The notes under the pieces are model-generated. The model was not told the origin of the DNA, made no database searches, and saw only the letters and a program-made list of their open reading frames with translations. A stretch of DNA of 64,000 nucleotides, taken from contig VMFP01000002.1 in NCBI GenBank assembly GCA_007376145.1, positions 8,679 to 72,678 on the forward strand, read 5' to 3'. A program made the position numbers and the translations under genes. The stretch comes from Parcubacteria group bacterium Gr01-1014_38 (GTDB lineage: Bacteria; Patescibacteriota; Andersenbacteria; UBA10190; CAIZMI01). This document shows positions 5,952 through 51,752 of the stretch, one piece after another (positions within the stretch are counted from its first letter, which is position 1; the number at the start of each line of letters is the position of its first letter).

Positions 5952-8540
5952 TCAGACGGTTGCCGTCGCCGCCACGGGTGCGGCGCGACGCTCTTTCTTC
6001 GGGTGCGAGGTTTCGAGTTTTACGGCTCCGTCGGCAAAGGTGATCTGCACCGACGCCCCCGGCTGGATGCTGGCGTCAATGATGCCGTTGGCGATGGGAT
6101 CTTCGACGAGCTCTTGGACGAACTGGCGGATGGGCCGGGCGCCTTCGTTCACGTCCCAGGCCCGCTTGGCGGTTTCATCACGGACGGCGTCGGCGACTTC
6201 TGCGTCAATCTTCTGCTTCCGGAGCCGCTCCTTCAAATCTTCGAGGTGCAGGGCCGCAATCCGGCGGAGCTCCGGCAGACCGAGCGGCTTGAAGACGACA
6301 ATCTGGTCGATGCGCGAGAGGAGCTCCGGCGGCATTTCTTCCTTGAGGTTCGAGAGGACCCGGTCTTTCGTTTCCTCGTACCGCTGTTTCGCTTCCTGGC
6401 GTTCGGACTCTCCCTGCACTTCGAACCCCATCTTCGCTTCCTTCGAAAGCTCGTGGGAACCGATGTTGCTCGTCATGATGATGATCGCGTTGCGGAAGTT
6501 CGCCTTCTTCCCGTGCGAGTCGGTGAGCTCTCCCTCTTCGAGAATTTGGAGGAGAATGTTGAACACGTCGTGGTGCGCCTTCTCAATTTCATCGAAGAGG
6601 ACGATGGCGTAGGGGCGGCGGCGGATCGCCTCGGTGAGTTTGCCGCCCTCCTCGTATCCCACGTAGCCCGCTGGGGCGCCGATGAGGCGAGACACGGCGT
6701 GCGCTTCCATGAATTCCGACATGTCCACCCGGACGAGCGCGGACTCGTCTTCGTAGATCTCCCGAGCCAGAACCTTGGCGAGTTCTGTCTTCCCGACGCC
6801 GGTCGGCCCCAGGAACAGGAAGCTTCCCACCGGACGGCGTGGGTTGCTGATCCCCGCGCGTGCCCGGCGGATGAAGCGGGAGACAATCTGGATCGCTTCC
6901 TTCTGGCCGACGATCTTGCTCCCGATTGTCCGCTCAAGGTTCTGGAGTTTCTTCCCTTCCGCTTTCACGAGGCGAGACACGGGGATGTTCGTCATCTCCG
7001 CGATGACGGTGGCAACGTCTTCCCGGGTGATGAGGACCGGTTCCCCGCCCGACGTCGCGGGAGACGCGTGGAGGGTGTGGACGTGCTCGGCCATGTCCTG
7101 TTCGGCTTTCTTGAGCGCGAGGGCTTCTTCGTAGCGCTCTTCGGCAATCGCTTTGTCCTTCTGGGCGGTAAGTTCCTTCAACTTCTCCTGCACTGCTTTG
7201 AGTTCGACCGCAGCGGGCGATCCCGCCATCCCACCGCGCTTCAGTCGCGCCGTCGACGCGGCTTCGTCGAGGAGATCGAGGGCCTTGTCGGGCAAGAACC
7301 GATCGGTGACATATCGCTTCGCGAGAGCCACGGAGGCCTCAAGAGCGTCGTCGGTGACTTTCGCACCGTGGTGCTTCTCGTACGATTCCCGCACGCCGCG
7401 GAGAACTTCGAGCGTCTCCGCTTCCGTCGCTTCCCGGACGATGATGGGCTGGAAGCGGCGTTCCAGCGCAGCGTCTTTCTCGATGTACTTCCGGTATTCG
7501 TCAAGCGTGGTGGCCCCAATGCACTGGATCTCCCCGTGGGAGAGCGTCGGCTTCAGGATGTTCGCCGCGTCGAGCGAACCGCCCGCCGATCCGGCGCCGA
7601 CGATGGTGTGGAGCTCATCAATGAAGAGCATGACGTTGGAGTTTTCCTTTGCTTCCCGGATGACTTCCTTGAGGCGCTCCTCGAACTCTCCGCGAAACGT
7701 GGTGCCGGCAAGCACGGCGGCGAGGTCGAGCGCCAAGATGCGCTTGTCCACGAGGTGCGGAGGCACCTGCCCCTTGGCGATGCGCTGGGCCAGCCCCACG
7801 ACGATGGCGGTCTTCCCCGTCCCGGGGTCTCCAATGAGGACGGGGTTGTTCTTCTGTTTCCGGGTCAGGATGCTCATGACCCGCTGGATCTCCTTCTGTC
7901 GTCCCACGACCGGATCGAACTTGCCCTGACGGGCCTGTTCGGTGAAATCCGTGCAGAAGTAGTCGAGAGCAGGCGTCCGCGACTTCGGGCGCTTCAGCTG
8001 CGCATCCATGCCCTTCGGCATCTGGATCGGCAGTCCGGTAAGACTTCCGAGACCACCCTGGAGGAAATTCGTGAGGTCGGGGAAGTGCGCCGTATTCCGT
8101 AAGACCACTTTCACCTGGTGGAGAAGCGTCTTTGTGTCCGCCGGCGAGCGCTCAAGGATCTGGTACGCCGTGGATTCCTTTGAGGTGAGGAGACCGTAGA
8201 GGAGGTGCTCGGTGCCGATGTACCGGTGCTGATGCTCAAACGCGGTCCGCGCGGCCCGCTCGAGTGCTTTCTCGGCGTCGGTCGCGAGAATTTCCTGGAA
8301 CTCTTGGCCGCGAGGGAGCGTTTCCAGTTCCGTTCGGACGTACTCCGGGGAGAGGCGGAGCTTCCGGAGCAGGGTAGCGGCAATGCTCCCCGTCTCTTTG
8401 CTCAAGCCGTAGAGAAGGTGCTCGCTGCCGACACCGTTGTGCTGAAGCTCATCGGCCACACGCGTCGCCTCCGCCAGGACATTCTTCAGGCGAGTTGTGA
8501 GCTTGTCTTGTATGGGAAGAGTGTTCATCTCTTTCATCAT
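5952..8540 (-). CDS. clpC: Clp/Hsp100 AAA+ chaperone ATPase, ClpC-like
   Basis: Two Clp_N repeats, two AAA+ modules (GDPGTGKTAIV and GPTGVGKTELAK), a short middle coiled coil, and a KMGF loop resembling the ClpP-docking xGF loop. Confidence 0.8.
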   Translation of the reverse strand: MMKEMNTLPIQDKLTTRLKNVLAEATRVADELQHNGVGSEHLLYGLSKETGSIAATLLRKLRLSPEYVRTELETLPRGQEFQEILATDAEKALERAARTAFEHQHRYIGTEHLLYGLLTSKESTAYQILERSPADTKTLLHQVKVVLRNTAHFPDLTNFLQGGLGSLTGLPIQMPKGMDAQLKRPKSRTPALDYFCTDFTEQARQGKFDPVVGRQKEIQRVMSILTRKQKNNPVLIGDPGTGKTAIVVGLAQRIAKGQVPPHLVDKRILALDLAAVLAGTTFRGEFEERLKEVIREAKENSNVMLFIDELHTIVGAGSAGGSLDAANILKPTLSHGEIQCIGATTLDEYRKYIEKDAALERRFQPIIVREATEAETLEVLRGVRESYEKHHGAKVTDDALEASVALAKRYVTDRFLPDKALDLLDEAASTARLKRGGMAGSPAAVELKAVQEKLKELTAQKDKAIAEERYEEALALKKAEQDMAEHVHTLHASPATSGGEPVLITREDVATVIAEMTNIPVSRLVKAEGKKLQNLERTIGSKIVGQKEAIQIVSRFIRRARAGISNPRRPVGSFLFLGPTGVGKTELAKVLAREIYEDESALVRVDMSEFMEAHAVSRLIGAPAGYVGYEEGGKLTEAIRRRPYAIVLFDEIEKAHHDVFNILLQILEEGELTDSHGKKANFRNAIIIMTSNIGSHELSKEAKMGFEVQGESERQEAKQRYEETKDRVLSNLKEEMPPELLSRIDQIVVFKPLGLPELRRIAALHLEDLKERLRKQKIDAEVADAVRDETAKRAWDVNEGARPIRQFVQELVEDPIANGIIDASIQPGASVQITFADGAVKLETSHPKKERRAAPVAATATV

Positions 8541-37572: not shown

Positions 37573-39315
37573 TTACTCGATCGGGAGCGGAATCGCGCCG
37601 TCGCCGCGGGCGAAAACGTATGCTGGCGTCGTGTTCGCGCGTGACACACGGCGCCACCATGGGATGAGGTCCCGTAATCCCTCTTCGATCGCGAGAAAAA
37701 CCTTTCGCACTTCGTGGTTGACGTTCCATCCTGTCCGCTGCCAGGTGCAGAACTCCCACTGGCGGAGGTTTGCCACGATGTGAAAGCCAACGATATTCCC
37801 GAGTGCGAGCGAATACTGCCGAAGCATCGCCGGCACGTCGTGACCCTGAAGGAGCATATCGAGCTCACGGTTGCTTCGGTGAACCTCCGCGAAGGCTGTC
37901 GGAAGTTCAGGCGGTGCGGGTTTGTCGTACTGGTAGAAACCGAGGTCGGGCGTGAGGTAGGTACGGAAGTGCGTGCAGAAGCCTTGGCGTTGGAGGTCAC
38001 GCCAGCCGCGGAAGCTCATGAGACCCCGGAAGGGAAAGCTGACCGCTTCGAACTCCGCAGGAAGTTTGTCATACGGGTCCCGTGCGGTCGTGAACGGCTC
38101 GTGGGCCATCAGGTAAGCGAATGGTGGCGAGGGACGAGATTCCTTGGGGAAGAGGGGAAGGAGTGTGTGCTCCACGCTGTCTCGCCAGAAGGGGCCAATA
38201 TGTTCGATGCGCACCCGCCCTTTCTCTCCAGATGCCCCGGTATCGAACCATCCGCGCGTCGAGAGGTACCGCCAGTGCGCTCGGTCCCACGCGGTCGGCT
38301 CGAAGTGCCGAGCGAACTGGTGCGCGCCGATTTTCGCAGCCTCTTCGAGAACAAGCTCGACCAAGGTGAGGTTTTCCGGCGTCTCGTCAAGGAGGAGGTG
38401 CTTCAAGAGCATCGGGAATGCCTCACCGCTCACGCAGACGCCGACAGAAGTGAGCGTAGATGCAGGGAGAAGATTCCCGAGGATGTCGCAAGTTTCCCCG
38501 ATCACGCCCGTCTCGAGGTCTTTCGGCGTATTGTGGTAGAGACCGCCATACCGCTCACGGAGGAACGTCGGGAACGGACCAGTGAAGTTCCGTCCGACGA
38601 GTTCCTGGTAGAGACGGAACAGGACATCCGCAAACGAGACGACCGTTTCCGGATTCACGCTCCATCCCGCCGCCAGTTCACGCTCGATGGGATAGCGGCC
38701 CTTCGTGGACATGTCCACGTACCGGGTACTGAGCTCGATGTAGCCCGAACCCGGACGCGTCCACTCGATGCTCTTCGCGGCGAGAAGCGAGACACCCTCG
38801 AAGCAGAGCCAGAAGCTTGCCATCCGCGCGATAGAGTTGTGTCCGTACTTGTCGAGCCACGTGGTGAGAAACTTGCGGGTCTTCTTCGACTCCGCAAATT
38901 CTCGGAGGTATTGTGGATCCGCACCGCAGCACTCCAAGAAGTGATCGAACTCCTGACGGGCTTCTTCGCTGGATGCGAGAAAGCTCCCGAGGTTCGATAT
39001 ATTCTGAGCGCGGAGGAACGCGACTTCGTCTCCGCCGAATTCCCGTTCGACGGTAGAAAGACGCGTCGCCAGAAACTGGGGCAGAAAGCTCTCCACCCAG
39101 ACCCCGCGCAGGCCGCGGGGGTTCTTCATGCGGGAGAACATCGCGAGGAGTGTTGCTCCGATGTTCGGCGGCAGCGTGTGCATGAAGAACACGCGACGAT
39201 CGAGATTCGTAAAAAACGGTCGAAGAGCACGCGTTTCATCGGCGGTGAACGAAGTACCGAGCGAAGAAAAAACAAACTCTTTGGCAACATCCAGGACTGC
39301 TTGCGAGTACTGCAT
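37573..39315 (-). CDS. Hypothetical 580-aa protein with weak, tentative ThyX/Thy1-like segments
   Basis: GSGYIELSTRYV resembles the ThyX S-x-RYV segment, but the RHR motif is absent. The C-terminal ANLRQWEFCTWQRT...HEVRKV resembles the ThyX terminal helix. Very tentative. Confidence 0.3.
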   Translation of the reverse strand: MQYSQAVLDVAKEFVFSSLGTSFTADETRALRPFFTNLDRRVFFMHTLPPNIGATLLAMFSRMKNPRGLRGVWVESFLPQFLATRLSTVEREFGGDEVAFLRAQNISNLGSFLASSEEARQEFDHFLECCGADPQYLREFAESKKTRKFLTTWLDKYGHNSIARMASFWLCFEGVSLLAAKSIEWTRPGSGYIELSTRYVDMSTKGRYPIERELAAGWSVNPETVVSFADVLFRLYQELVGRNFTGPFPTFLRERYGGLYHNTPKDLETGVIGETCDILGNLLPASTLTSVGVCVSGEAFPMLLKHLLLDETPENLTLVELVLEEAAKIGAHQFARHFEPTAWDRAHWRYLSTRGWFDTGASGEKGRVRIEHIGPFWRDSVEHTLLPLFPKESRPSPPFAYLMAHEPFTTARDPYDKLPAEFEAVSFPFRGLMSFRGWRDLQRQGFCTHFRTYLTPDLGFYQYDKPAPPELPTAFAEVHRSNRELDMLLQGHDVPAMLRQYSLALGNIVGFHIVANLRQWEFCTWQRTGWNVNHEVRKVFLAIEEGLRDLIPWWRRVSRANTTPAYVFARGDGAIPLPIE

Positions 39316-39443
39316 AGGACATTCCTTTCAAGAAGGTTGTGAAGGTTCACGAAGGAGCAGTGGACTGTTGTGTATCGCGTCTCAATCGGGAAGTCAACCG
39401 GCGCGCGCTTACGCTTCGCGTGCGTCCCCGCTACCATGTACTC

Positions 39444-39827
39444 ATGACCCTCCGGTCCTCTCTCGCGGTCTTCGGGGTGGGGACAGCCTTCGCGTGGGCG
39501 GCGTTTCTCCTCATCTTCGTCACCGTTCCGCCCGAGACTGCGGACTCCCTTGGCGAGTTCTTCTTTTTCAGCGCGCTCTTCCTCGCTCTCACCGGAACGT
39601 TGACGATGCTCGGGATTGTGGGTCGGTGGCGGATGAGCAGTGTGCTCCCGGCGCTGCACATTGGTCCGGCCTTCCGGCAAGGCATGCTGCTCTCGGGTAC
39701 GGCGGCTGGGTTACTCCTCCTCCAGCGATTCCGGTTCTTGCGGTGGTGGAACGTCCTCCTCGTGGTCGCGGTCGCGGTGCTGCTCGATGTGCTCTTGACA
39801 CGCGGGCGTGACGCCGTGCCTGAATGA
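39444..39827 (+). CDS. Small polytopic membrane protein. Hypothetical.
   Basis: Three or four hydrophobic helices. Start taken at MTLRSS. Confidence 0.3.
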   Translation: MTLRSSLAVFGVGTAFAWAAFLLIFVTVPPETADSLGEFFFFSALFLALTGTLTMLGIVGRWRMSSVLPALHIGPAFRQGMLLSGTAAGLLLLQRFRFLRWWNVLLVVAVAVLLDVLLTRGRDAVPE

Positions 39828-39844
39828 GAAGTTCTTCACGCGCG

Positions 39845-40861
39845 ATGACTGATCTCCTCCAGCGTATTGCGGACCTGCAGGCGGAAGCCCGCACGGCCTT
39901 GAGCCGCGTCCAGACGCTTGCCGAACTCGAGCAGTTCCGGAATGTCTACCTCGCCCGTCGGGGAAAGATCCCCACGCTATTGAGAACGGTCAAAGATCTC
40001 CCGTCCGATGAGCGGCGGCCCGTCGGTGCCGCGGCAAACACGTTGCGCCGCGGGTTAGAAGCGGAGTATCTCGCGGCCCGCGCCCGACTTCGTGCGCGCG
40101 GCGTACGCCCCTTCGACGTGACGGTTCCAGGGCGCAAACCGGTGCTGGGCCATCTCCACCCCCTGACGATTGTCCGTCGGGATATCGAAGAGGTCTTTCT
40201 CGGTATGGGGTTTGAGATTCTTGACGGCCCCGAAGTCGAAGAGCCCCGGTACAACTTCGATCTTCTCAACGTTCCCCTGGAGCACCCGGCGCGCGACCTC
40301 ATGGATACCTTCTGGCTGACCGACGGCCGCCTCCTCCGCACGCACACCTCGGCTGCCCAAGCCCGCGTCATGGCGAACCGAACGCCGCCCTTTCGCATCC
40401 TGATTCCTGGACGAGTGTTCCGACACGAAGCGACGGACGCGACGCACGAATCCACCTTCTCCCAGTTTGAGGGATTGTACGTGGACGAGGGGGTGTCGCT
40501 CGCGGATCTCAAGGGGGTCCTCGGCGAAGCGCTCCAACGCATCGTGCACCAGCGTGTGGACATTCGCTTCCGTCCGTCGTACTTCCCGTTCGTCGAGCCG
40601 GGGGTGGAGGTGGATATCTCGTGTCTGAGCCGGCGCGGCAGTCACCGTGACTGCCGCGTGTGCAAAGGAACCGGGTGGGTCGAGATTCTCGGTGCGGGGA
40701 TGATCCACCCCGTCGTCTTGCAGAACGTCGCGGTTGACTCGACGCGGTACCGAGGCTTTGCGTTCGGCGGGAGCATCGATCGGCTTGCGATGCTTCGCTA
40801 CCGCCTGACGGACATCCGTCTGTTCTGGAGCGGCGATCCGAACTTCCTTGAACAGTTCTGA
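39845..40861 (+). CDS. pheS: Phenylalanine--tRNA ligase alpha subunit
   Basis: Class II motifs 2 and 3: FRPSYFPFVEPGVEVD and GFAFGGSIDRLAML. Confidence 0.85.
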   Translation: MTDLLQRIADLQAEARTALSRVQTLAELEQFRNVYLARRGKIPTLLRTVKDLPSDERRPVGAAANTLRRGLEAEYLAARARLRARGVRPFDVTVPGRKPVLGHLHPLTIVRRDIEEVFLGMGFEILDGPEVEEPRYNFDLLNVPLEHPARDLMDTFWLTDGRLLRTHTSAAQARVMANRTPPFRILIPGRVFRHEATDATHESTFSQFEGLYVDEGVSLADLKGVLGEALQRIVHQRVDIRFRPSYFPFVEPGVEVDISCLSRRGSHRDCRVCKGTGWVEILGAGMIHPVVLQNVAVDSTRYRGFAFGGSIDRLAMLRYRLTDIRLFWSGDPNFLEQF

Positions 40862-40862
40862 C

Positions 40863-42947
40863 ATGCGTCTCTCACTGGAGTGGTTGCGCTCGTACGTCCG
40901 TCTCCCCGAAGACGCGGCAACGGTTGCCCAATTGCTTACGGAACAGAGTTTCGAGACGGCGGTGGGTGCATCGGAAGGTTCCGGCGAGCTCCTCGAGGCC
41001 GACGTGCTCCCAAACCGGGCAGCGGACTGCCTCAGTTACCTCGGAGTCGCGCGGGAGCTGGGCGCGATTCTCCGTCGTACCGTCTCGTGGCCGGACATGA
41101 ACCTCGAAAAGTCGCTCACGCGCGCGCAGCCGCCATTTGCGCTTCGGATCCAGAACACCGCGCTCTGTCCGCGGTTCCTTGCCGTGCTCGTTGAGGGAGT
41201 GCGTGGGAATGCCCCGTCCCCGGCGTGGATGCAGCGCCGCTTACAGGCCGTCGGCGTCCGTCCGCAGAACCTCATCGTGGATGTCACGAACTACGTCCTC
41301 TGGGAGGTGGGGCAACCGACGCATGCGTTCGATGCGCGGGCGATTCGCCGAACGCTCGGCGTTCGTCCTAGTCGCTCCGGCGAGACAGTGCGAACATTGG
41401 ACGGTGTGACACACACGCTCTCGAAGGGAGTGCTCGTCTTAACCTCCGACGATCAGCCCATTGATGTCGCGGGCATCATGGGCGGGGAAGAGAGCAGCGT
41501 GCATGCAGATACGACCGTGATTGTCCTCACCGCGGGTCTCTTCGACCGAGTGGCGGTCCGCAAAGCATCGCAGGCGCTCAACCTGCGGACCGACGCTTCC
41601 GACCGCTTTGCAAAAGGGCGCACGGCGGCGCACGTCGAGGCGGGCGCCGCACGGGTCCTGGCGCTCTTACAAGAGCTGGCAGGAGCACGCGCCACCGCGA
41701 TGGCCGAGGCGTACCCGCAACCGATGAAGGCGCGGGCGATTCGGGTTACCGGCACAGAGGTCGAGGCGCTCCTGGGCTTAAAAGTCTCGAGTGCGCGCCA
41801 GCGAACCATCCTGACCGCACTCGGCTGCCGTGTGTCCGTGGTCGGGAAGACCCTTCGTGTTACCCCACCGCTCTTCCGGGCCGATCTGGCCATCCCGGAG
41901 GACATCGCGGAAGAGATCGGGCGCATCGTAGGGCTCGAGAAGATTCCGGCGCGTCTCCCCCGTGCTCCGCTGAACCCCGCTACCTTGCCAGACGACCTTC
42001 GGGCAATTCGGATTCTTGAAGATCAGCTGAAGGCTGCCGGGTGGACGGAGACGCTCTCCTACTCGTTCAGCATCGAGGAGGAGACACTCGCGCTCGGATT
42101 CGAGAAGGTGGAGCACCTGAAGATCGTGAATCCCATCAACCGTGATCAGATTCGGCTGCGGATTTCTCTGCTTCCGAATCTCCTCCACCACGCGTGGGCC
42201 GGAGCGAAGAAGACCCCGCTCCTCCGCCTTTTCGAGGTCGGGCGCGTCTACCTGCCCGGGCCGCGCACGCGCGCGCCGCGGGGCACGGAAAATTGGAAAG
42301 CGCGCGAACCGCTCCGCCTGGCTGGTCTGCTTGTTCGGCGCGGCGACGTCGCGTCTGACCGGCAGCGGGAAGATTTCTACGAAGTGAAAGGAACCGTCGA
42401 GCAACTGCTCATAACTTGTGGGTTGTCCGATGTGTGGTTTGACGATGTCGAGCCGAGTCCGGAGGGAACCTTCATCTCTCTTTGGCAGCCCGGCCGCAGT
42501 GCAGAGGTGAAGGTTGGTCAGAAGGCGGAGGTTGGATTCGTTGGCACCGTTGCTCCCGAGGTACTCGAGCGTCTCCGGATCCGGGGCAGCGTGGTCGCGT
42601 TCGATCTCGACCTCGCGGAGATTCTCACGCTCGAGAAAGCCGAGCGGGTCTACCAAGCCCCCCTCCCGTACCCGCCCGTGCTCCGCGATCTCTCACTCCT
42701 TGTGCCGGAGACGGTGCTCGTGGATATGCTCATGGAGGCCATTGACCGAGTCGGGGCACCGCTCGTCCAGGACGTGGACTTCGTGGATCTCTACGAGGGG
42801 TCCGAGCTTCCCGAAGGCCGTCGGAGCATCACGCTTCGGATCACCTACGGTTCGCCAGAGCGGACGCTCACCGACAAGGAAGTGAACGATCTCCACCGCC
42901 GCATCGTCGCAAGCCTCGAAGAAGAGTTCGGCGTGGAAGAGCGGTAG
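40863..42947 (+). CDS. pheT: Phenylalanine--tRNA ligase beta subunit (lacks the N-terminal tRNA-binding domain)
   Basis: B3/B4, B5 and C-terminal FDX-ACB regions. 694 aa versus ~795 in E. coli. Confidence 0.85.
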   Translation: MRLSLEWLRSYVRLPEDAATVAQLLTEQSFETAVGASEGSGELLEADVLPNRAADCLSYLGVARELGAILRRTVSWPDMNLEKSLTRAQPPFALRIQNTALCPRFLAVLVEGVRGNAPSPAWMQRRLQAVGVRPQNLIVDVTNYVLWEVGQPTHAFDARAIRRTLGVRPSRSGETVRTLDGVTHTLSKGVLVLTSDDQPIDVAGIMGGEESSVHADTTVIVLTAGLFDRVAVRKASQALNLRTDASDRFAKGRTAAHVEAGAARVLALLQELAGARATAMAEAYPQPMKARAIRVTGTEVEALLGLKVSSARQRTILTALGCRVSVVGKTLRVTPPLFRADLAIPEDIAEEIGRIVGLEKIPARLPRAPLNPATLPDDLRAIRILEDQLKAAGWTETLSYSFSIEEETLALGFEKVEHLKIVNPINRDQIRLRISLLPNLLHHAWAGAKKTPLLRLFEVGRVYLPGPRTRAPRGTENWKAREPLRLAGLLVRRGDVASDRQREDFYEVKGTVEQLLITCGLSDVWFDDVEPSPEGTFISLWQPGRSAEVKVGQKAEVGFVGTVAPEVLERLRIRGSVVAFDLDLAEILTLEKAERVYQAPLPYPPVLRDLSLLVPETVLVDMLMEAIDRVGAPLVQDVDFVDLYEGSELPEGRRSITLRITYGSPERTLTDKEVNDLHRRIVASLEEEFGVEER

Positions 42948-43208
42948 CTGGATTGGTTCGTCGACCAACTTCGGGAGCGGGATGTAGACGTGCTCTGTCG
43001 TGCGCTGGAACACGGTTCTCACGTCGTCCACGATGCGGAGCCACAGCGACGGAACACCGAGGGAACAGCACGAGCGGACGGATTTCGGCGCAAACAAACC
43101 GGAAGTGGGGACAGGGGCGAGGACCGCGTCACACTGGCAGCACGAGCGCGGAACAGAGGGCAAACCCGCAAGCCCCTTGGCGGAGCAGCCGCGCCGTGGC
43201 ACACTTCG

Positions 43209-43432
43209 ATGGCAATGCCGCGGACCATCACACGCTCTCCCGCGATCCCCGTCGTTCCCCGGCGATACGGTGGCCGGTGGGTCGCGTGGAGCCGAGACGG
43301 CAGGAAGATTATCGGGTCGGGAAAGACTCCCGAGGAAGCCCGCAACGCGGCGCGCCGCGCCGGCGTGAGGGACGTGGCCTACGAATGGGTGCCGCCCGCC
43401 GGCGAGCGCTTCATCGGCGGTCACGCGGCGGG

Positions 43433-43436
<4 letters not shown>
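43209..43436 (+). CDS. Small protein (DUF5678-like, tentative) overlapping the start of the aspartic protease gene
   Basis: YGGRWVAWSRDGRKIIGSGKTPEEA pattern. ATGA overlap with the downstream gene. Confidence 0.3.
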
Positions 43437-46145
<2,709 letters not shown>

Positions 46146-46154
46146 ATGAAAAAG

Positions 46155-46188
46155 CTCGCATCACGCCGTGATGCGAGCAGGATTTTTG
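46155..46188. terminator. Intrinsic terminator CTCGCATCAC-gcc-GTGATGCGAG followed by GATTTTT, after gyrB and convergent with the GNAT gene
   Basis: Perfect 10-bp stem plus a T-run. Confidence 0.5.
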
Positions 46189-46210
46189 AGGCTCCTTCCG
46201 GTGGTGGCGT

Positions 46211-46714
46211 TCACCGACAGTGCGGCTTCCCAAGAGGGCGGATGAGGAGGCAGACACGTGCGGGCCCGTTCACTGGACCTGGGTGGGTCGTGAGGTGCGT
46301 GAACATGGGAGACGTCAGTATCCGGAGAGCTCGGGCATGTCTCTCGTCAACCTGGATGACGAGCTGTCGGAAGCCTCGGTCACACATCTCCGCGGCGACC
46401 GCGCCCAGGAGCGCGTGCGCGACCTGATCACCGGAAGGTTTGCACGGTACCGCGACCTTGAGGATGTGCGCGTAGGAGGATTCAGGAGTCCCCACGCAGA
46501 CGGAAAAGCCCACGATTTCCGCGTCGAGTTCCGCAACGAGGATGGCCCCGGTTCGTGCCCCGGCCACGGCGAGTCGAAATGCGCAGTCATCCCAAGGCGG
46601 TTCGATGGTGAACTGGTCGATGCCAGCCGATGCCTGACGAGCGAGATAGGACTGATGGCGAGGGGCCGTTCGACGTTCGATGTCCAGGATCACCCGGAGA
46701 TCTTTGGGAGTCAT
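46211..46714 (-). CDS. GNAT family N-acetyltransferase (RimI-like)
   Basis: AHILKVAV...GDQVAHALLGAVAAEMCDRGFRQLVIQVDERHARALRIL matches acetyl-CoA-binding motif A of GNATs. Confidence 0.55.
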   Translation of the reverse strand: MTPKDLRVILDIERRTAPRHQSYLARQASAGIDQFTIEPPWDDCAFRLAVAGARTGAILVAELDAEIVGFSVCVGTPESSYAHILKVAVPCKPSGDQVAHALLGAVAAEMCDRGFRQLVIQVDERHARALRILTSPMFTHLTTHPGPVNGPARVCLLIRPLGKPHCR

Positions 46715-46853
46715 GGAGTATACGTCCACCCGGCCGTTTTGACTTCCCCAGAGAGTCATAGGAATACCCTCCCTTCATGCTGCAGACCACAGTGAAAAGA
46801 ACAGTGTTGGACTCCTCCGATAGTGAACTGTGGCAGGGCGCGCGTCAACCAAG

Positions 46854-46881
46854 TTGACAGGCCGGTCTTCCATGCTATACT
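46854..46881 (+). promoter_or_regulatory. Sigma70-like promoter TTGACA-N16-TATACT for secE-nusG. A palindrome GTCAAC-CAA-GTTGAC overlaps the -35.
   Basis: Near-consensus hexamers seen in the sequence. Confidence 0.45.
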
Positions 46882-46941
46882 CGGCTTCGTGGAGCCTCGC
46901 GGGCCCGGTATGTTCACACGGTGATGAGCCTGTCCGCGCCG

Positions 46942-47133
46942 ATGGCGTTTCGCCTTCTGTCTCTCGTGAGCTTCCTGCGGGAAGTCCGTCAGGAACTGAA
47001 AGGGGTACAGTGGCCGAGTCGCGAGGCGACGGTCCGTTTCACGGCACTCGTCATTGTCGTCTCCGCGGTCGTCGGTCTCGTCACAGGGGCGTTCGATTTC
47101 CTCTTGACGCTCGCCGTCGAGCGGCTCTTATAA
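46942..47133 (+). CDS. secE: Preprotein translocase subunit SecE
   Basis: A single C-terminal TM and KEVRQELKGVQWPSR. Position upstream of nusG. An alternative start lies at 46921. Confidence 0.7.
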   Translation: MAFRLLSLVSFLREVRQELKGVQWPSREATVRFTALVIVVSAVVGLVTGAFDFLLTLAVERLL

Positions 47134-47172
47134 ACGGTACAGATCACTCACGAAGAATCTCCGTTTCCTGGT

Positions 47173-47718
47173 ATGCCCAAGCAGATCTCCACCACGGATA
47201 AAGCCTGGTACGTGCTCCACACGTACTCGGGCTATGAGGACAACGTTGCGCGGAACCTCCGGCAGCGGATTGAGTCTATGGGCATGGAGGACAAGATCTT
47301 CCAGGTGCTCGTGCCGCGCGAGAAGAAAATCAAGATTAAGGACGGGAAGCGCCGCGTCGTCGAAGAGCGGCTGTTCCCTGGGTACGTCCTCGTGGAAATG
47401 ATCGTCACCGACGATTCCTGGTACGTCGTGCGGAATACGCCGAACGTGACCGGCTTCATCGGCTCGGGAACCATTCCCACGCCGGTGTCCGAAGACGAAG
47501 TGAAGCGGCTCTTCGAGCGCATCGGTGAGGAAGAGCCCACGTACAAGATTGACATGAAGGCGGGGGACACGGTGAAGATCACGGACGGCCCCTTCAAGGA
47601 CTTCGATGGGCGCGTCGCCGAGGTGAATGAAGCGAAGGGAAAGGTCAAAGTCCTCGTGAACATGTTCGGTCGCGAGACGCCGATTGAGCTCGATTCCCTG
47701 CAGGCGAAGAAGGTGTAA
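47173..47718 (+). CDS. nusG: Transcription termination/antitermination factor NusG
   Basis: NGN domain WYVLHTYSGYE and KOW motif GDTVKITDGPFKDFDGRV. Confidence 0.9.
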   Translation: MPKQISTTDKAWYVLHTYSGYEDNVARNLRQRIESMGMEDKIFQVLVPREKKIKIKDGKRRVVEERLFPGYVLVEMIVTDDSWYVVRNTPNVTGFIGSGTIPTPVSEDEVKRLFERIGEEEPTYKIDMKAGDTVKITDGPFKDFDGRVAEVNEAKGKVKVLVNMFGRETPIELDSLQAKKV

Positions 47719-47975
47719 AAGACACCGCTGGCTTCTGCGCTCGTCTATGGAGCGCCGTCGCTCGCGGACCGTGCCGGGCTTGGTCACCACGCCGCTATTG
47801 ACTTTTTCTCCTAGATGTGCGAGTATTCCAGCTTCTTTCACAACAAGAATAGTCCGAATGAGGCGAGTATTGTGAGGGTTTTCTAAATCCCCAGAACACT
47901 CGTCTCATATCGAGACAATCGTTTTTCGAGAGCGTTTCTCGGATAGTCCGCATTTCCTAAAGAAAGGATGAGACG

Positions 47976-48872
47976 ATGTCCAAGACATTGATCACGTCCG
48001 GCAAGCGGAAGCAGATTGTTCGATTGTTGAAAGATGGCCTCGACAAGGTCGCGCTCGACGATAGCGGAGCGCAACGCCTCATCGAGCGTGGCGACGAACT
48101 GCAGGAAGGACTCAAGGAGCTGCTCGAGCGCCTGTCCGTCACCGATCAGGTCGCTGATGAGGAGGTCGAGTCGAGCTACGGCTGCCCCTCCGGGTACAAG
48201 TTCCACCCGACGCTGGAGGAAAACCTTGCCGATCTTGAGCGAGAGCTTAAGATGATCCGAAGGATGTTCCCGGAACTGGCGAATGCCGACATCGATCGTT
48301 CTGTTCTGGAACGGATCAAAGCGCAGGACCTCACGCTTCCGACAGGCGCTGAACGGTGGACGCTCATCCCGCGCTGGGAGAAGATCGCCTCGACATACAA
48401 CGAAGCCGTCGAGAAAGTGATCGAACTGATCGCCGCGTCGCGGAAGTTCATCAACTACCGCGCAGGCAAGCTCGGTCCCGATCACCTCCGCCAGCACACG
48501 CGGAAGGTTGATATGTTCCAGACGCTAGGAGAGCAGCAGAAAGGTCACGACATCCTCGTGGTTCCCGCGCAGTTCGGCCTCCGGCATCGTGGTCGGTCCA
48601 TCCGGCGTGCCCATGAAGTGTTCGTGGCGAACGAGTGCGGTCTGGGAGCCTTCGCTGTCGGCTGCATGCTCCTGACCCATCCGGAACGCCTCCAGCACTA
48701 CGACGATCTCTGGATCGACTGTGCGGTCGATGAGTACGCTCCGGTTGCCGTTGGCGGGTTTCCGGGGGCTCCGTCCTTCCTCTTCTGCGGTGGTTGGCTG
48801 CGGCTTGGCGCTTGCTGGTTTGACGGTGCCTACGGCAACTATGGTTCCGCGTCTGGCTTCCTCCCGCAGTAA
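47976..48872 (+). CDS. Hypothetical protein (298 aa) in a lower-GC insert between nusG and rplK
   Basis: ORF with RBS AAAGGATGAG upstream. No recognised motifs. Flanked by its own promoter-like sequence and a terminator. Confidence 0.45.
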
Positions 48873-48957
48873 CGACACTTGTTCCTTGAATGCTTGGGTC
48901 TTTCGAGAGTTTGATCCTTGCGCCGTCGCTAAAGCTACGGCGCGCGCAGTCGCATTC

Positions 48958-48998
48958 GACGGGGTTTTCCACACGCTGGAGACCCCGTTTTTTTCTTT
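48958..48998 (+). terminator. Rho-independent terminator ACGGGGTT-ttccacacgctgga-GACCCCGT followed by TTTTTTT
   Basis: Seen in the sequence. Confidence 0.55.
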
Positions 48999-49053
48999 TG
49001 CGCGCCTGGACAGGCGTGGCAGAATTTCCTACACTAACCGCTCGCACGTACGT

Positions 49054-49479
49054 ATGCCCAAAGAAGTCCTCACGCGAGTGAAGCTCCAAGTTCCCGGCGG
49101 GAAAGCGACGCCGGCGCCGCCCATTGGTCCGGCGCTTGGTCAGCACGGCGTGAACATCCAGGCGTTCTGCACGAAGTTCAACGAGGCTACGAAAGACAAG
49201 AACGAGGAAATTACCCCGGTGGTCATCACCATCTACAAGGATCGGTCGTTTACCTTTATCTTCAAAACGCCGCCCGCGGCGGAACTCCTGAAGAAGGCCG
49301 CGGGGATCGAGAAGGGTTCCGGCACGCCGAATACCGCGAAAATCGGTGCGGTCACGAAGGCCCAAGTCCGCGAGATCGCCGAGAAGAAAATAACGGACTT
49401 GAATGCTGGAGACGTTGAGGCGGCAATGCGGATCGTCGAAGGCACCGCCCGCTCCATGGGCATTACGGTGAAGGAGTAA
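49054..49479 (+). CDS. rplK: 50S ribosomal protein L11
   Basis: [27 protein letters not shown] is the L11 signature. Confidence 0.9.
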
Positions 49480-49484
49480 GGAGT

Positions 49485-50159
49485 ATGCCGAAGCGGTACG
49501 GAGCACTCACGAAGGAAAAGCCATCCGCTCCCGTTGCGCTTCCCGAGGCGGTGAGCTTTGTCCGGAAGCACGCGAACGCGAAGTTCGATGAGACGATTGA
49601 TCTCCATGCGCACCTTGGCGTAGAGCCGGAGAAGAGCGACCAGGCGGTGCGCGGGACGGTGCTCCTGCCGCATGGGACACCTTCCAGCGTCCGGGTCGCG
49701 GTCTTTACCAACGATCGCGCACTCCAAGCGGCCGCCAAGGCGGCCGGCGCCGATATCGTGGGGGGAGAGGAATTGATTGAGCAGGTGAAGACCAACGGGA
49801 AGCTCGATGCCGACGTGGCGGTCGCGACCCCTGATGCGATGAAAGACCTCGCGACCATCGCAAAGGTTCTCGGGCCGAAAGGCTTGATGCCGAACCCGAA
49901 ATCAGGAACGATTGGTCCTGATCCGACGAAGATCGTCCGGGAGCTCAAGGGCGGGAAAACTGCCTTCAAGATGGATGACTCCGGAAACGTGCACCTCGCC
50001 GTCGGCAAAGCGTCCTGGCCGGAGGAAAAACTCCTCGCAAATGCGCGCGCCGCTCTGGATGCGCTTCGGCAGGCCAGGCCCGCCGCGGCAAAGGGAGAAT
50101 TCCTGAAGTCCGTGACGGTGACGTCCACGATGGGCGTGGGCGTGCGGGTGAAGGTCTAA
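49485..50159 (+). CDS. rplA: 50S ribosomal protein L1
   Basis: Full-length L1 homologue. Confidence 0.9.
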   Translation: MPKRYGALTKEKPSAPVALPEAVSFVRKHANAKFDETIDLHAHLGVEPEKSDQAVRGTVLLPHGTPSSVRVAVFTNDRALQAAAKAAGADIVGGEELIEQVKTNGKLDADVAVATPDAMKDLATIAKVLGPKGLMPNPKSGTIGPDPTKIVRELKGGKTAFKMDDSGNVHLAVGKASWPEEKLLANARAALDALRQARPAAAKGEFLKSVTVTSTMGVGVRVKV

Positions 50160-50193
50160 AAAAGCCACCCATTTCTGAGTGGCTACTTCCTCA

Positions 50194-50925
50194 CTACGAG
50201 GAAGTATTGAATGTCCGCCAATCCATGGGCTCCCAGTGGAAGTGGGTGCATTCACATGGATGACAACGACATATTTGGCATCCCTCTTGGTACTGATCCG
50301 TGAACGCGTCTTCGAGATCAATGCCCAGTACGCACGCGATCGCGATGGTCCAGGCCAGCGCATCCGCAAGTTCCAGTGCCAGCTCATCTTCGATCTGGTC
50401 GCGGCGAATCTGGAGCCGAGAGATTTTCATCGCCAGACTGGAGAGCTCGCTAATCTCCCGAAAAAGCCGGTTCAGCATGTTTTCCAGGCCACGCTTCCGG
50501 TTCATCGCGCCGTACAGATGATCGAGGTGGGCACACCACTGCCGGAGTGTCCATTGAAGCTGCTCGGGGTCGGCATGCTGTGCGAGTTGCGATTCAGAAT
50601 GCCTCTCGGAGCAGGCGCAAGGACTCTGTCCGCAGTAGCTGCAACGTCGGGGGTACTTTCTGACCGTTGCGATCACGAACGGATTCGCCGCCCCGGAAGT
50701 TTCAGGGAGATTCCAGAAGTGCTCTGCAACGCAGAAGATGCGCGATACGATCCGAGCGACGGCACACCCGAGTACATCCCGACCGAATTCTTTGCGAATC
50801 GCGTCCTGGAGGTCGCCAATCGCAAGATTCAGGTAATCAATTCGATCGCGGAGACTTGGGAGAAAAACGCGATTCCGTCGTGCGTACAGTGAAAATGAAT
50901 GTTCCATAAGCTTCTGGAGCGTCAT
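50194..50925 (-). CDS. MazG-like all-alpha NTP pyrophosphohydrolase domain protein with Cys-rich inserts
   Basis: LAIGDLQDAIRKE and ELADALAWTIAIACVLGIDLEDAF resemble the MazG EExxE/D motifs. Extra CSYCGQSPCAC and CQICRCHPCEC clusters. Confidence 0.4.
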   Translation of the reverse strand: MTLQKLMEHSFSLYARRNRVFLPSLRDRIDYLNLAIGDLQDAIRKEFGRDVLGCAVARIVSRIFCVAEHFWNLPETSGAANPFVIATVRKYPRRCSYCGQSPCACSERHSESQLAQHADPEQLQWTLRQWCAHLDHLYGAMNRKRGLENMLNRLFREISELSSLAMKISRLQIRRDQIEDELALELADALAWTIAIACVLGIDLEDAFTDQYQEGCQICRCHPCECTHFHWEPMDWRTFNTSS

Positions 50926-51044
50926 ACATGGACTCCTTGTTGATAGAAAGAACTCAGTGAACCGTGCCGCGCATTGTACGAGTGTGGTGCACGCGCCACA
51001 AGGGGTTGTTCCTCCCGTGTTCCCGGGGCATGCTAAGTAGGTTC

Positions 51045-51752
51045 ATGGGTATTCTCATTGTCAACGAGGGTGCAGACGGTTCGGGGAAAGAGACGCAGAC
51101 GACTCTCCTCTGTGAACGGTTGAAAAGCGAAGGGTACCGTGTGGAGCGGTTCGATTTTCCCACCTACGGACGTGACCCTGTCGCGGATCTCATCAAGTCC
51201 CTGTTGAGTACCAGGCAGGCGCACTGGAACGAGCGGACCATGGAATCTCGTGCGCTTCTCTACGCGGCAAATCGTGCGTTGTTTCGCGACGAGCTTCGGG
51301 GTTTCTTGGAAACACCAGGAACCATTGTCGTCTGCAATCGCTATGTCGCGAGCAATCAAGCGCACATGGCCGGGTATCTCACCAACTCTAACGCCTGGGA
51401 AGAGCGGTTTGCATGGATTGAGCGGCTCGAGTTTGAGCACATTGGTCTTCCGCGTCCCGACATCGTGCTGTTTCACACGATGCCGCATGCGAAGCGCGCG
51501 GCGCTCCTGGAGAAACGAGAACAGGGAAAGCAAGATGCGCACGAGCGAGACGCGGAGTACCTCCAGCGTGTGGAACAGTGCTACGCGTTGCTCGCCCGCC
51601 GCCATGCCGCGGTATGGCGCCATATTCCTGCCGACGTACACGGGCGCGTAGAAGCGCCGCCCGACGTCCACGTGCGAGTTTGGGAGACTCTTGCGGCGCA
51701 TCCCGCATGGCGGGAATTCGTCCAGCAGCGAGTGCGCGTCGGTACGCCGTGA
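51045..51752 (+). CDS. tmk: Thymidylate kinase
   Basis: P-loop IVNEGADGSGKETQ, DRY-like motif CNRYVAS, and a LID region. Confidence 0.75.
   Translation: MGILIVNEGADGSGKETQTTLLCERLKSEGYRVERFDFPTYGRDPVADLIKSLLSTRQAHWNERTMESRALLYAANRALFRDELRGFLETPGTIVVCNRYVASNQAHMAGYLTNSNAWEERFAWIERLEFEHIGLPRPDIVLFHTMPHAKRAALLEKREQGKQDAHERDAEYLQRVEQCYALLARRHAAVWRHIPADVHGRVEAPPDVHVRVWETLAAHPAWREFVQQRVRVGTP

Follow-up and report, generated by a model that had tools for sequence, protein, structure and literature searches.

The secE-nusG-rplK-rplA cluster of the patescibacterium Gr01-1014_38 raises the question of what a 298-codon open reading frame (ORF298) is doing between nusG and rplK, which lie 1,335 nt apart in the stretch of 64,000 nt of contig VMFP01000002.1 analysed here (the window, whose positions serve as coordinates throughout). 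The genes run in the order gyrB, a GNAT gene on the minus strand, secE, nusG, ORF298, rplK and rplA; this layout around nusG and rplK, described in a first-pass annotation of the sequence, was confirmed by the list of open reading frames and by Pfam. ORF298 corresponds to GenBank entry TSC72876.1, annotated as uncharacterised. Comparison with its homologues indicates that it is very probably the target of a diversity-generating retroelement (DGR), encoding its variable protein. In such a system, reverse transcription of an invariant template repeat (TR) introduces errors at adenines, and the variable region (VR) of the target is replaced by the resulting cDNA (PMC3240598, PMC5758913). Below, fetched family or relative loci are numbered L0xx, and homologous proteins P0xxx.

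The evidence for this identity comes from family members that retain the remainder of the system. Immediately 3′ of the genes for P0022, P0043 and P0003 come bAvd and RVT_1 genes, and the order homologue, bAvd gene, RVT_1 reverse transcriptase is found in L001, L003 and L095. Genes for Avd and reverse transcriptase are adjacent in L001, L003, L089 to L092 and L095, and 5 kb off in L008. Ten of 12 family loci have a nearby second copy of the gene's 3′ end (46-131 nt), and the mismatches between VR and TR fall at repeat adenines in 20/20, 14/14, 17/17, 25/25, 21/21, 26/27, 22/24 and 16/19 cases, or 161/167 in total for these eight loci. Because adenine-specific mismatches between repeats are the defining signature of DGRs, the family is interpreted as one of DGR variable proteins. 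ORF298 aligns over its full length with the proteins that have VR/TR pairs, at 42-66% identity.

The same signature can be read in ORF298 itself, the last codons of which are homologous to the VR/TR pairs of ten loci (Table 1). This VR contains 6 A in 131 nt (4.6%), compared with 21.9% in the rest of ORF298, and its adenine depletion explains a trough in AT skew (-0.39 to -0.42) at 48600-49049. The VR was compared with the foreign TRs of eight other loci, from which it differs at 80-85% of A positions compared with 21-28% of others (Fisher p = 3e-9); in one such comparison, 25 of 31 adenine sites differ, against 21 of 100 other sites (p = 3e-9). The 3′ end of the VR reads CCGCAG, as in all family VRs, and the TRs end in CCGAAG. 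The Cys/Gly/Trp-rich C-terminus noticed in the first-pass annotation is real and coincides with the adenine-depleted VR; it can be attributed to mutagenesis of AAY, GAY and AAG template codons. An adenine-starved, Gly/Cys/Trp-rich C-terminus together with strongly negative AT skew could be used to flag DGR targets with no reverse transcriptase in view.

The protein belongs to a large family that is without a Pfam model, with 1,661 homologous clusters that align over their full length at ~55% identity, and with 1,578 representatives when clustered at 50% identity. Searches of Pfam, NCBIfam, PHROG and PADLOC with ORF298 gave nothing significant, and a sequence profile search of PDB returned 0 matches. 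The earlier description of a protein with no recognisable domains holds for these domain collections, but the identity of ORF298 as a DGR target is recognisable. Structure prediction, which the first-pass annotation had proposed, was performed with AlphaFold and yielded a confident model, with predicted local distance difference test scores of 82.7 (full protein) and 83.7 (residues 76-298). In the model, a linker connects an N-terminal bundle of three helices to an alpha/beta domain whose last three beta-strands carry the VR; a Foldseek search of BFVD with the full model returned nothing. In the family alignment, a strongly conserved scaffold is followed by a C-terminal part made up of alternating fixed and hypervariable positions. 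By analogy with other DGR targets, these alternating positions on predicted beta-strands may constitute a binding surface and point to a ligand-binding role. No signal peptide or membrane segment is evident in the sequence as judged by eye. Many family members have only 150-280 residues; several of these lie on very short contigs, so some may be truncated, and other short members may represent a subfamily that lacks the N-terminal helical bundle (P0391-P0506 match list).

A second assembly sheds light on the recent history of the locus. At 90% identity, ORF298 clusters with a single further protein, P0390, encoded on contig L098 of ENA sample ERZ27284378; the exact ORF298 protein has no entry in the contig collection. 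L098 is identical to window positions 38107-48724, with 0 mismatches in 10.6 kb, and diverges from 48725; past this point its VR, CTTG repeats and terminator all differ from those of the window, and it continues into the conserved region between terminator and TR (the 5′ part of the DGR RNA), and it ends before the TR. A second contig from the same sample, L099, was found by exact-match look-up of RplK; it starts inside a different gene body, ~73% identical to that of the window, and is identical to the window from 48687 over 10.8 kb, VR and rplK included. In this second assembly of the same strain, the flanks show no single-nucleotide polymorphisms relative to the window in 21 kb. The segment between the two breakpoints is a 38-nt core that lies in the most conserved stretch of family DNA (conservation 0.86-0.88), and across which the window's gene and a second family copy appear to have recombined. 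The end sequence of L098 had 0 matches in a viral scan. Gene body and tail in the window are both nearest to the group formed by L094, L095, L097 and L007, and L091, a phage-type locus, is the closest match for the beginning of L099 as well as for the end of L098. Because body and tail in the window cohere, and the ends of L098 and L099 are L091-like, the window form is taken to be, at the sequence level, the ancestral and unoccupied arrangement, irrespective of whether the locus is occupied in the genome at present. The simplest reading is that L098 and L099 are the two junctions of an L091-like, cassette-bearing element that recombined into this coherent form.

This reading depends on a link between L098 and L099 that we infer and do not see, which leaves some room for a different account, namely that the window contig under-represents the locus. 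The true chromosome would then have one variable-protein gene, a DGR cassette (possibly an entire prophage) and another variable-protein gene between nusG and rplK, and either the assembler or a real deletion would have joined the copies at the 38-nt core, making ORF298 a hybrid or a collapsed reading. The switch in L098 from the window's left side to a different VR and the 5′ region of a DGR RNA, and that in L099 from a different gene body to the window sequence at 48687, are both consistent with such a locus; moreover, these are k=139 contigs running through the 38-nt core, so that reads, rather than repeat collapse, should support the joins. However, the coherence of ORF298, body and tail with the same group of relatives, and the presence of the exact protein in GenBank make this account unlikely, even though a collapsed product would equal the sequence of the unoccupied form.

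If the window form is indeed the unoccupied one, the solitary gene may act as a docking site for DGR-carrying, phage-like elements, with recombination at the core swapping the VR and all that lies downstream for those of a phage copy. We put this forward tentatively. Were it true, the resident gene body in the sister assembly would have received a new VR and a live cassette, so that an orphan target was re-armed, and the phage copy would have taken the host's old VR beside rplK. Such exchange would add a second, modular layer of variation to adenine mutagenesis, and would explain the persistence of cassette-less copies in housekeeping loci. The comparison of the two assemblies offers a concrete test of the exchange of VRs and cassettes with phages.

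Several results weigh against ORF298 being a DGR target. Blastn with 48400-49053 found no second copy, which would be the cognate TR, in the 64-kb window or the next 10 kb, and tblastn with the family reverse transcriptase and Avd found neither in the window. No reverse transcriptase named for Gr01-1014_38 is among the best 120 matches to a related one, which is a weak negative. Neither the full model nor residues 76-298 showed any Foldseek similarity to PDB structures, including the C-type-lectin folds of solved DGR variable proteins. The cassette of L098, the sole one linked to the locus, does not supply the cognate TR, in that its neighbouring VR differs from that of the window at 29% of the positions at which adenine is absent from every family TR, for which reason a single TR serving both VRs at the locus was rejected. 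Finally, the VR is identical in the window and in L099, with no fresh diversification visible. The next 10 kb to the right of the window, read from another assembly of the same strain, contain housekeeping genes only, so that the absence of a cassette extends over 47 kb upstream and 25 kb downstream of ORF298. A search for the VR 3′ end in species-representative genomes, a set that does not include Gr01-1014_38, gave no match. P0274 was rejected as a candidate reverse transcriptase of Gr01-1014_38, since it has no nr entry, which would be expected for every annotated protein of the assembly.

Because no TR, Avd or reverse transcriptase lies within this range, ORF298 would be either a remote target served in trans or an orphan that has lost its cassette, the two being about equally likely. 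That it is being diversified at present is conceivable, although we lean slightly against it. The cassette is in other states elsewhere in the family: L097 has only a partial TR, and L007 and L094 have no TR in the sequence available. L004 presents a decayed cassette, in which VR and TR are intact (17/17 mismatches at adenines), Avd is reduced to a fragment (residues 65-114), and there is no reverse transcriptase within 5 kb. The reverse-transcriptase genes of L095 (6140-6170) and L008 (1003-1024) have a (GA)9-11 tract located at an identical codon position, where each of the two genes is out of frame. Of 120 reverse-transcriptase homologues, 17 have (RE)n in frame, with 3 to 5.5 repeats, at approximately residue 183, and the (GA)n tract looks like a slipped-strand ON/OFF switch for a DGR.

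The lack of a cassette in the 72 kb covered, and the decay seen in the family (L004 without reverse transcriptase, frameshifted reverse transcriptases in L008 and L095), would also be expected if ORF298 were a dead relic, that is, a former DGR target kept by chance with no present function. The state of the gene speaks to the contrary: the reading frame is intact and full length, 14 of 14 family-invariant residues are kept, and the promoter, leader hairpin, ribosome-binding site, CTTG repeats and terminator are all retained. In addition, host-like GC content at third codon positions (GC3) suggests long residence under selection. We therefore consider a relic quite improbable, and retain the remote or orphan target as the preferred interpretation.

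How the gene came to lie in this cluster was addressed by synteny, using the 80 closest NusG loci from species-representative genomes, all Patescibacteria with NusG identities of 66-80%. In 80/80 of these rplK succeeds nusG, mostly with a gap of around 60 nt and thus well under 200 nt, and none has an ORF298 homologue within 5 kb. Chance variation of the gap falls far short of the insertion seen in the window. The closest homologues of ORF298 (60-66% identity) instead adjoin unrelated genes, encoding a CAP-domain protein, ftsA, an AP endonuclease and infC. By these comparisons, ORF298 was inserted into secE-nusG-rplK-rplA and did not belong to the operon ancestrally, which bears out the insertion between nusG and rplK claimed by the first-pass annotation. 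That annotation had also stated what would speak against an insertion, namely presence of the gene in all relatives with host-like GC; the GC content did prove host-like, but no relative in the set has the gene. The view that ORF298 is an ancestral member in this lineage, which could appeal to its host-like GC and GC3 and to the occupied position in the second assembly of the same strain, is already refuted at family and order level and, given the empty junctions of the 80 relatives and the unrelated neighbours of the nearest homologues, can be dismissed as extremely improbable.

The occupied junction is less surprising than it may seem, since the nusG, rplK and rplA junctions are not inviolable in this phylum and other genes split them in relatives. 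The nusG-rplK gap measures 485-1,600 nt in 6 of the 80 relatives and is occupied there by other, unrelated genes. Judged by their translations only, two of these gap genes encode an SPFH/band-7-like protein, and the others an IS1595-like transposase, a membrane protein and small proteins. In many of the 80 relatives, rplK is separated from rplA by a gene for a conserved, ~320-residue membrane protein with Cys-containing repeats, and the L11-L1 pair is often split in the phylum.

Composition provides a mixed answer as to whether the gene is foreign. The GC content is 58.0% for the nusG-rplK segment, 58.4% for nusG, 58.7% for rplK and 61.1% for the window. The low GC reported earlier for the segment is confined to its non-coding parts, 43% in promoter and leader and 54% in the 3′ flank, whereas ORF298 has a GC content of 60.4% and a GC3 of 74%, within the ranges of its neighbours (58-63% and 63-84%). 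ORF298 does not have the composition of a recently transferred gene, and the description of a foreign gene finds its support in origin: relatives are carried on phage contigs and in varied neighbourhoods. A large terminase gene (phrog_38, 1e-79) lies by the family gene in L089 and L091, with a small terminase and a serine integrase also present in L089, and L090 encodes a head-tail adaptor or portal protein and an SU10-type major capsid protein. Other family members sit among cellular housekeeping genes in many unrelated neighbourhoods. Proteins of 496-498 residues upstream in L001 and L003 were considered as large terminases and rejected, as they do not match the terminase of L089 and L091, and phage linkage is restricted to L089 to L092. 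From these gene contexts, the family is common to Patescibacteria and their phages, and the module in the window probably represents phage-derived DNA lodged between nusG and rplK, the GC content of which has since converged on that of the host.

The boundaries of this self-contained module of 1.2 kb can be traced at the DNA level. Blastn alignments begin at 47794 with L094 (85% identity), and those with L095, L097 and L007 (71-75%) end at 48992-49001. The promoter-like TTGACT-N17-GAGTAT of the first-pass annotation stands in part: its -10 hexamer falls below the scan threshold (3/6), but it is preceded by a TGn extended -10 at 47818-47820, and the site aligns with TTGAC(A/T)-N16/17 followed by TATAAT, TAAAAT or TATACT upstream of the homologues in L004, L008 and L090. 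Downstream, the leader is predicted to fold into two hairpins, for which 95.4% of cells across nine loci are paired, compared with 41-53% when the partners are slid. Compensatory changes occur in 12 pairs, a level reached in 0/500 shuffles, and no Rfam family matches the leader hairpin. A smaller, terminator-like hairpin overlaps the long one, some bases of whose 3′ strand it uses, and covaries with it in L090 and L091, and these alternative structures suggest a switch. An ATG...TGA frame in the leader was considered as a leader peptide and rejected because the frame is not conserved. The ribosome-binding site of ORF298, GAAAGGA, is at 47962-47968.

The 3′ flank is equally well defined. CTTG-type repeats follow the VR in 13/13 family loci and are absent after the TR in L001 and L003, where the flanks were read; in the window, the pattern has one match, compared with 0.05 expected by chance. 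Together with the 3′ boundary of the VR, these repeats may guide retrohoming, as a positional analogue of the mark that designates the recipient in the Bordetella phage. The intrinsic terminator 3′ of the gene, described in the first-pass annotation, was picked up by the scan as a 12-bp stem and T-run. A hairpin is present at this position in all family loci, with a stem sequence that differs for each sub-lineage and covaries, consistent with the terminator predicted here. The promoter-like TGGACA-N17-TACACT reported earlier for rplK was likewise recovered by the scan. It lies outside the homologous module, and its interpretation as the leftover TR promoter of a cassette was rejected, because homology to other loci ends at 49001.

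Table 1. Positions of the module, its neighbours and related features (window coordinates unless a locus is named)
Feature	Position	Strand	Basis or remark
secE	46921-47133		
nusG, upstream host gene	47173-47718	+	Pfam NusG 3e-31 + KOW
Whole inserted module (promoter, leader, ORF, CTTG repeats, terminator)	47794-49001	+	DNA-level homology to family loci
Promoter-like site TTGACT (47798-47803), N17 ending TGC, GAGTAT (47821-47826)	47798-47826	+	read from sequence
Long leader hairpin of the putative variable-protein mRNA	47858-47908	+	conserved across 9 loci
Small alternative hairpin GTCTC-ATATC-GAGAC and T-run	47902-47916	+	terminator-like scan match
Second leader hairpin CGAGA-GCGTT-TCTCG	47927-47941	+	covaries: CCCGA/TCGGG, CCGGA/TCTGG, CCAGA/TCTGG
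ORF298, very probable DGR variable protein; N-terminal helical bundle and C-terminal alpha/beta domain predicted	47976-48872	+	homologues, AlphaFold
38-nt core, putative site of crossover with a second family copy in the sister assembly	48687-48724	+	L098 identical to 48724, L099 from 48687
VR, codons A255-Q298	48738-48869	+	homologous to VR/TR pairs of 10 loci
Six CTTG-type repeats, 7-10 nt spacing (four exact CTTG, plus CTTTCG and TTTG)	48878-48920	+	directly 3′ of stop
Predicted intrinsic terminator of module	48958-48999	+	12-bp stem (48958-48989), 6 GC pairs, then TTTTTTTCTTTT
rplK promoter-like site TGGACA-N17-TACACT	49007-49035	+	consensus scan, 9/12 positions; outside homologous module
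rplK, downstream host gene	49054-49479	+	Pfam Ribosomal_L11_N + Ribosomal_L11
rplA	49485-50159		
nusG-rplK gap genes of relatives	L035 5567-6331; L051 2503-3258; L050 5271-6065 (-); L025 5553-5996; L065 1190-1597; L040 5553-6107		
rplK-rplA membrane protein of relatives	L012 5981-6982; L013 6056-7021; L015 6002-6970; L017 6027-6992		
~75-nt segment between terminator and TR	L001 5965-6038; L003 6024-6097; L089 10641-10713; L091 3640-3711; L098 10884-10966		
Decayed cassette of L004	6274-6404 and 6460-6609		three tRNA genes nearby

Taken together with the cassettes of its relatives, these elements suggest how the gene would have been diversified. In family members that keep the cassette, the nearby TR would be transcribed and then copied by the reverse transcriptase with Avd, which would mis-incorporate opposite adenines. 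The resulting cDNA would replace the last ~131 nt of the target gene and so rewrite ~20 codons. These specify residues on the C-terminal beta-strands, presumably a binding surface. ORF298 would bear the scar of this process, an adenine-depleted VR with a VR-type 3′ end, alone in its contig. An anonymous hypothetical protein in a conserved operon is thereby recast as a probable DGR target, and with it a family of >1,500 clusters. Patescibacteria, tiny bacteria of groundwater, probably live attached to host cells, and no function has been assigned to the targets of their DGRs; a compact, well-folding target with a leader hairpin, CTTG repeats and a 38-nt core is a tractable candidate for structural and retrohoming studies.

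Known DGRs offer several points of comparison. In bacteria of the candidate phyla radiation (CPR), DGRs are abundant and their targets typically have no recognisable domains (PMC8144416, PMC5758913), and ribosomal-protein genes are interleaved with some of them (PMC5758913). ORF298 comes from the same host group as CPR DGR clade 2 (Roux et al. 2021, PMC8144416) and the UVR classes (Wu et al. 2018, PMC5758913). Like these targets it has a C-terminal VR, no recognisable domain and no transmembrane segment, with mismatches specific to adenine, and the family shares the usual layout of target, template repeat, Avd and reverse transcriptase. ORF298 differs in standing alone inside a cluster of ribosomal-protein and transcription-factor genes, and the likeness drawn here is to the UVR classes as a group. 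The solitary copy in secE-nusG-rplK-rplA, its defined cis-elements, and the evidence of exchange with a cassette-bearing copy at a fixed core are what appear less ordinary.

Similarities to the Mtd system of phage BPP-1 (template repeat, Avd and Brt, with an initiation of mutagenic homing (IMH) element and a downstream cruciform; PMC3240598, PMC5758913) include a phage-linked target with a C-terminal VR, VR and TR that differ at their 3′ ends (there as in the CCGCAG and CCGAAG seen here), and a VR-specific DNA element 3′ of the VR. However, ORF298 has no Foldseek similarity to Mtd-type C-type-lectin domains, its VR is followed by CTTG repeats and a terminator hairpin in contrast to the GC-rich inverted repeat directly after the IMH, and family genes adjoin terminase or portal genes rather than tail-fibre genes. 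Non-adjacent, remote DGR targets are documented (PMC5758913), although those >100 kb away were found only outside the CPR set by Wu et al. (PMC5758913). The DGR of Treponema denticola, with seven extra remote targets (PMC5758913, PMC4891356), resembles the present case in having a VR gene far from any reverse transcriptase, but its cognate TR is known and differs only at adenines, whereas none was found here in the window and the adjoining 10 kb.

Some further features were observed at the related loci and among the host genes. A conserved segment of ~75 nt (GAGTCTAGGCT...ACGGATTGYCGTCGCYGAACTCTTTCTC) lies between the target-gene terminator and the TR; it has no match in Rfam and probably folds into a 5′ domain of the DGR RNA. 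A LOOT RNA (RF03000, 85 bits, full length) is found in L091 at 6190-6308 on the minus strand, just 3′ of the DGR reverse transcriptase, on a contig classified as phage. Around the cluster in the window, an Rfam search of 45500-51500 (E <= 1) gave no match, including no L11 or L1 leader motif. The gene 3′ of rplA is convergent (50194-50925, minus strand) with a weak match to MazG (E = 1e-3), and is followed by tmk and gatB; the usual successors, rplJ-rplL, do not come after rplA, so that the ribosomal cluster is broken here too. Lastly, gyrB and the convergent GNAT gene are separated by a perfect 11-bp hairpin (46154-46178) that has T-runs on either strand and looks like a bidirectional terminator.

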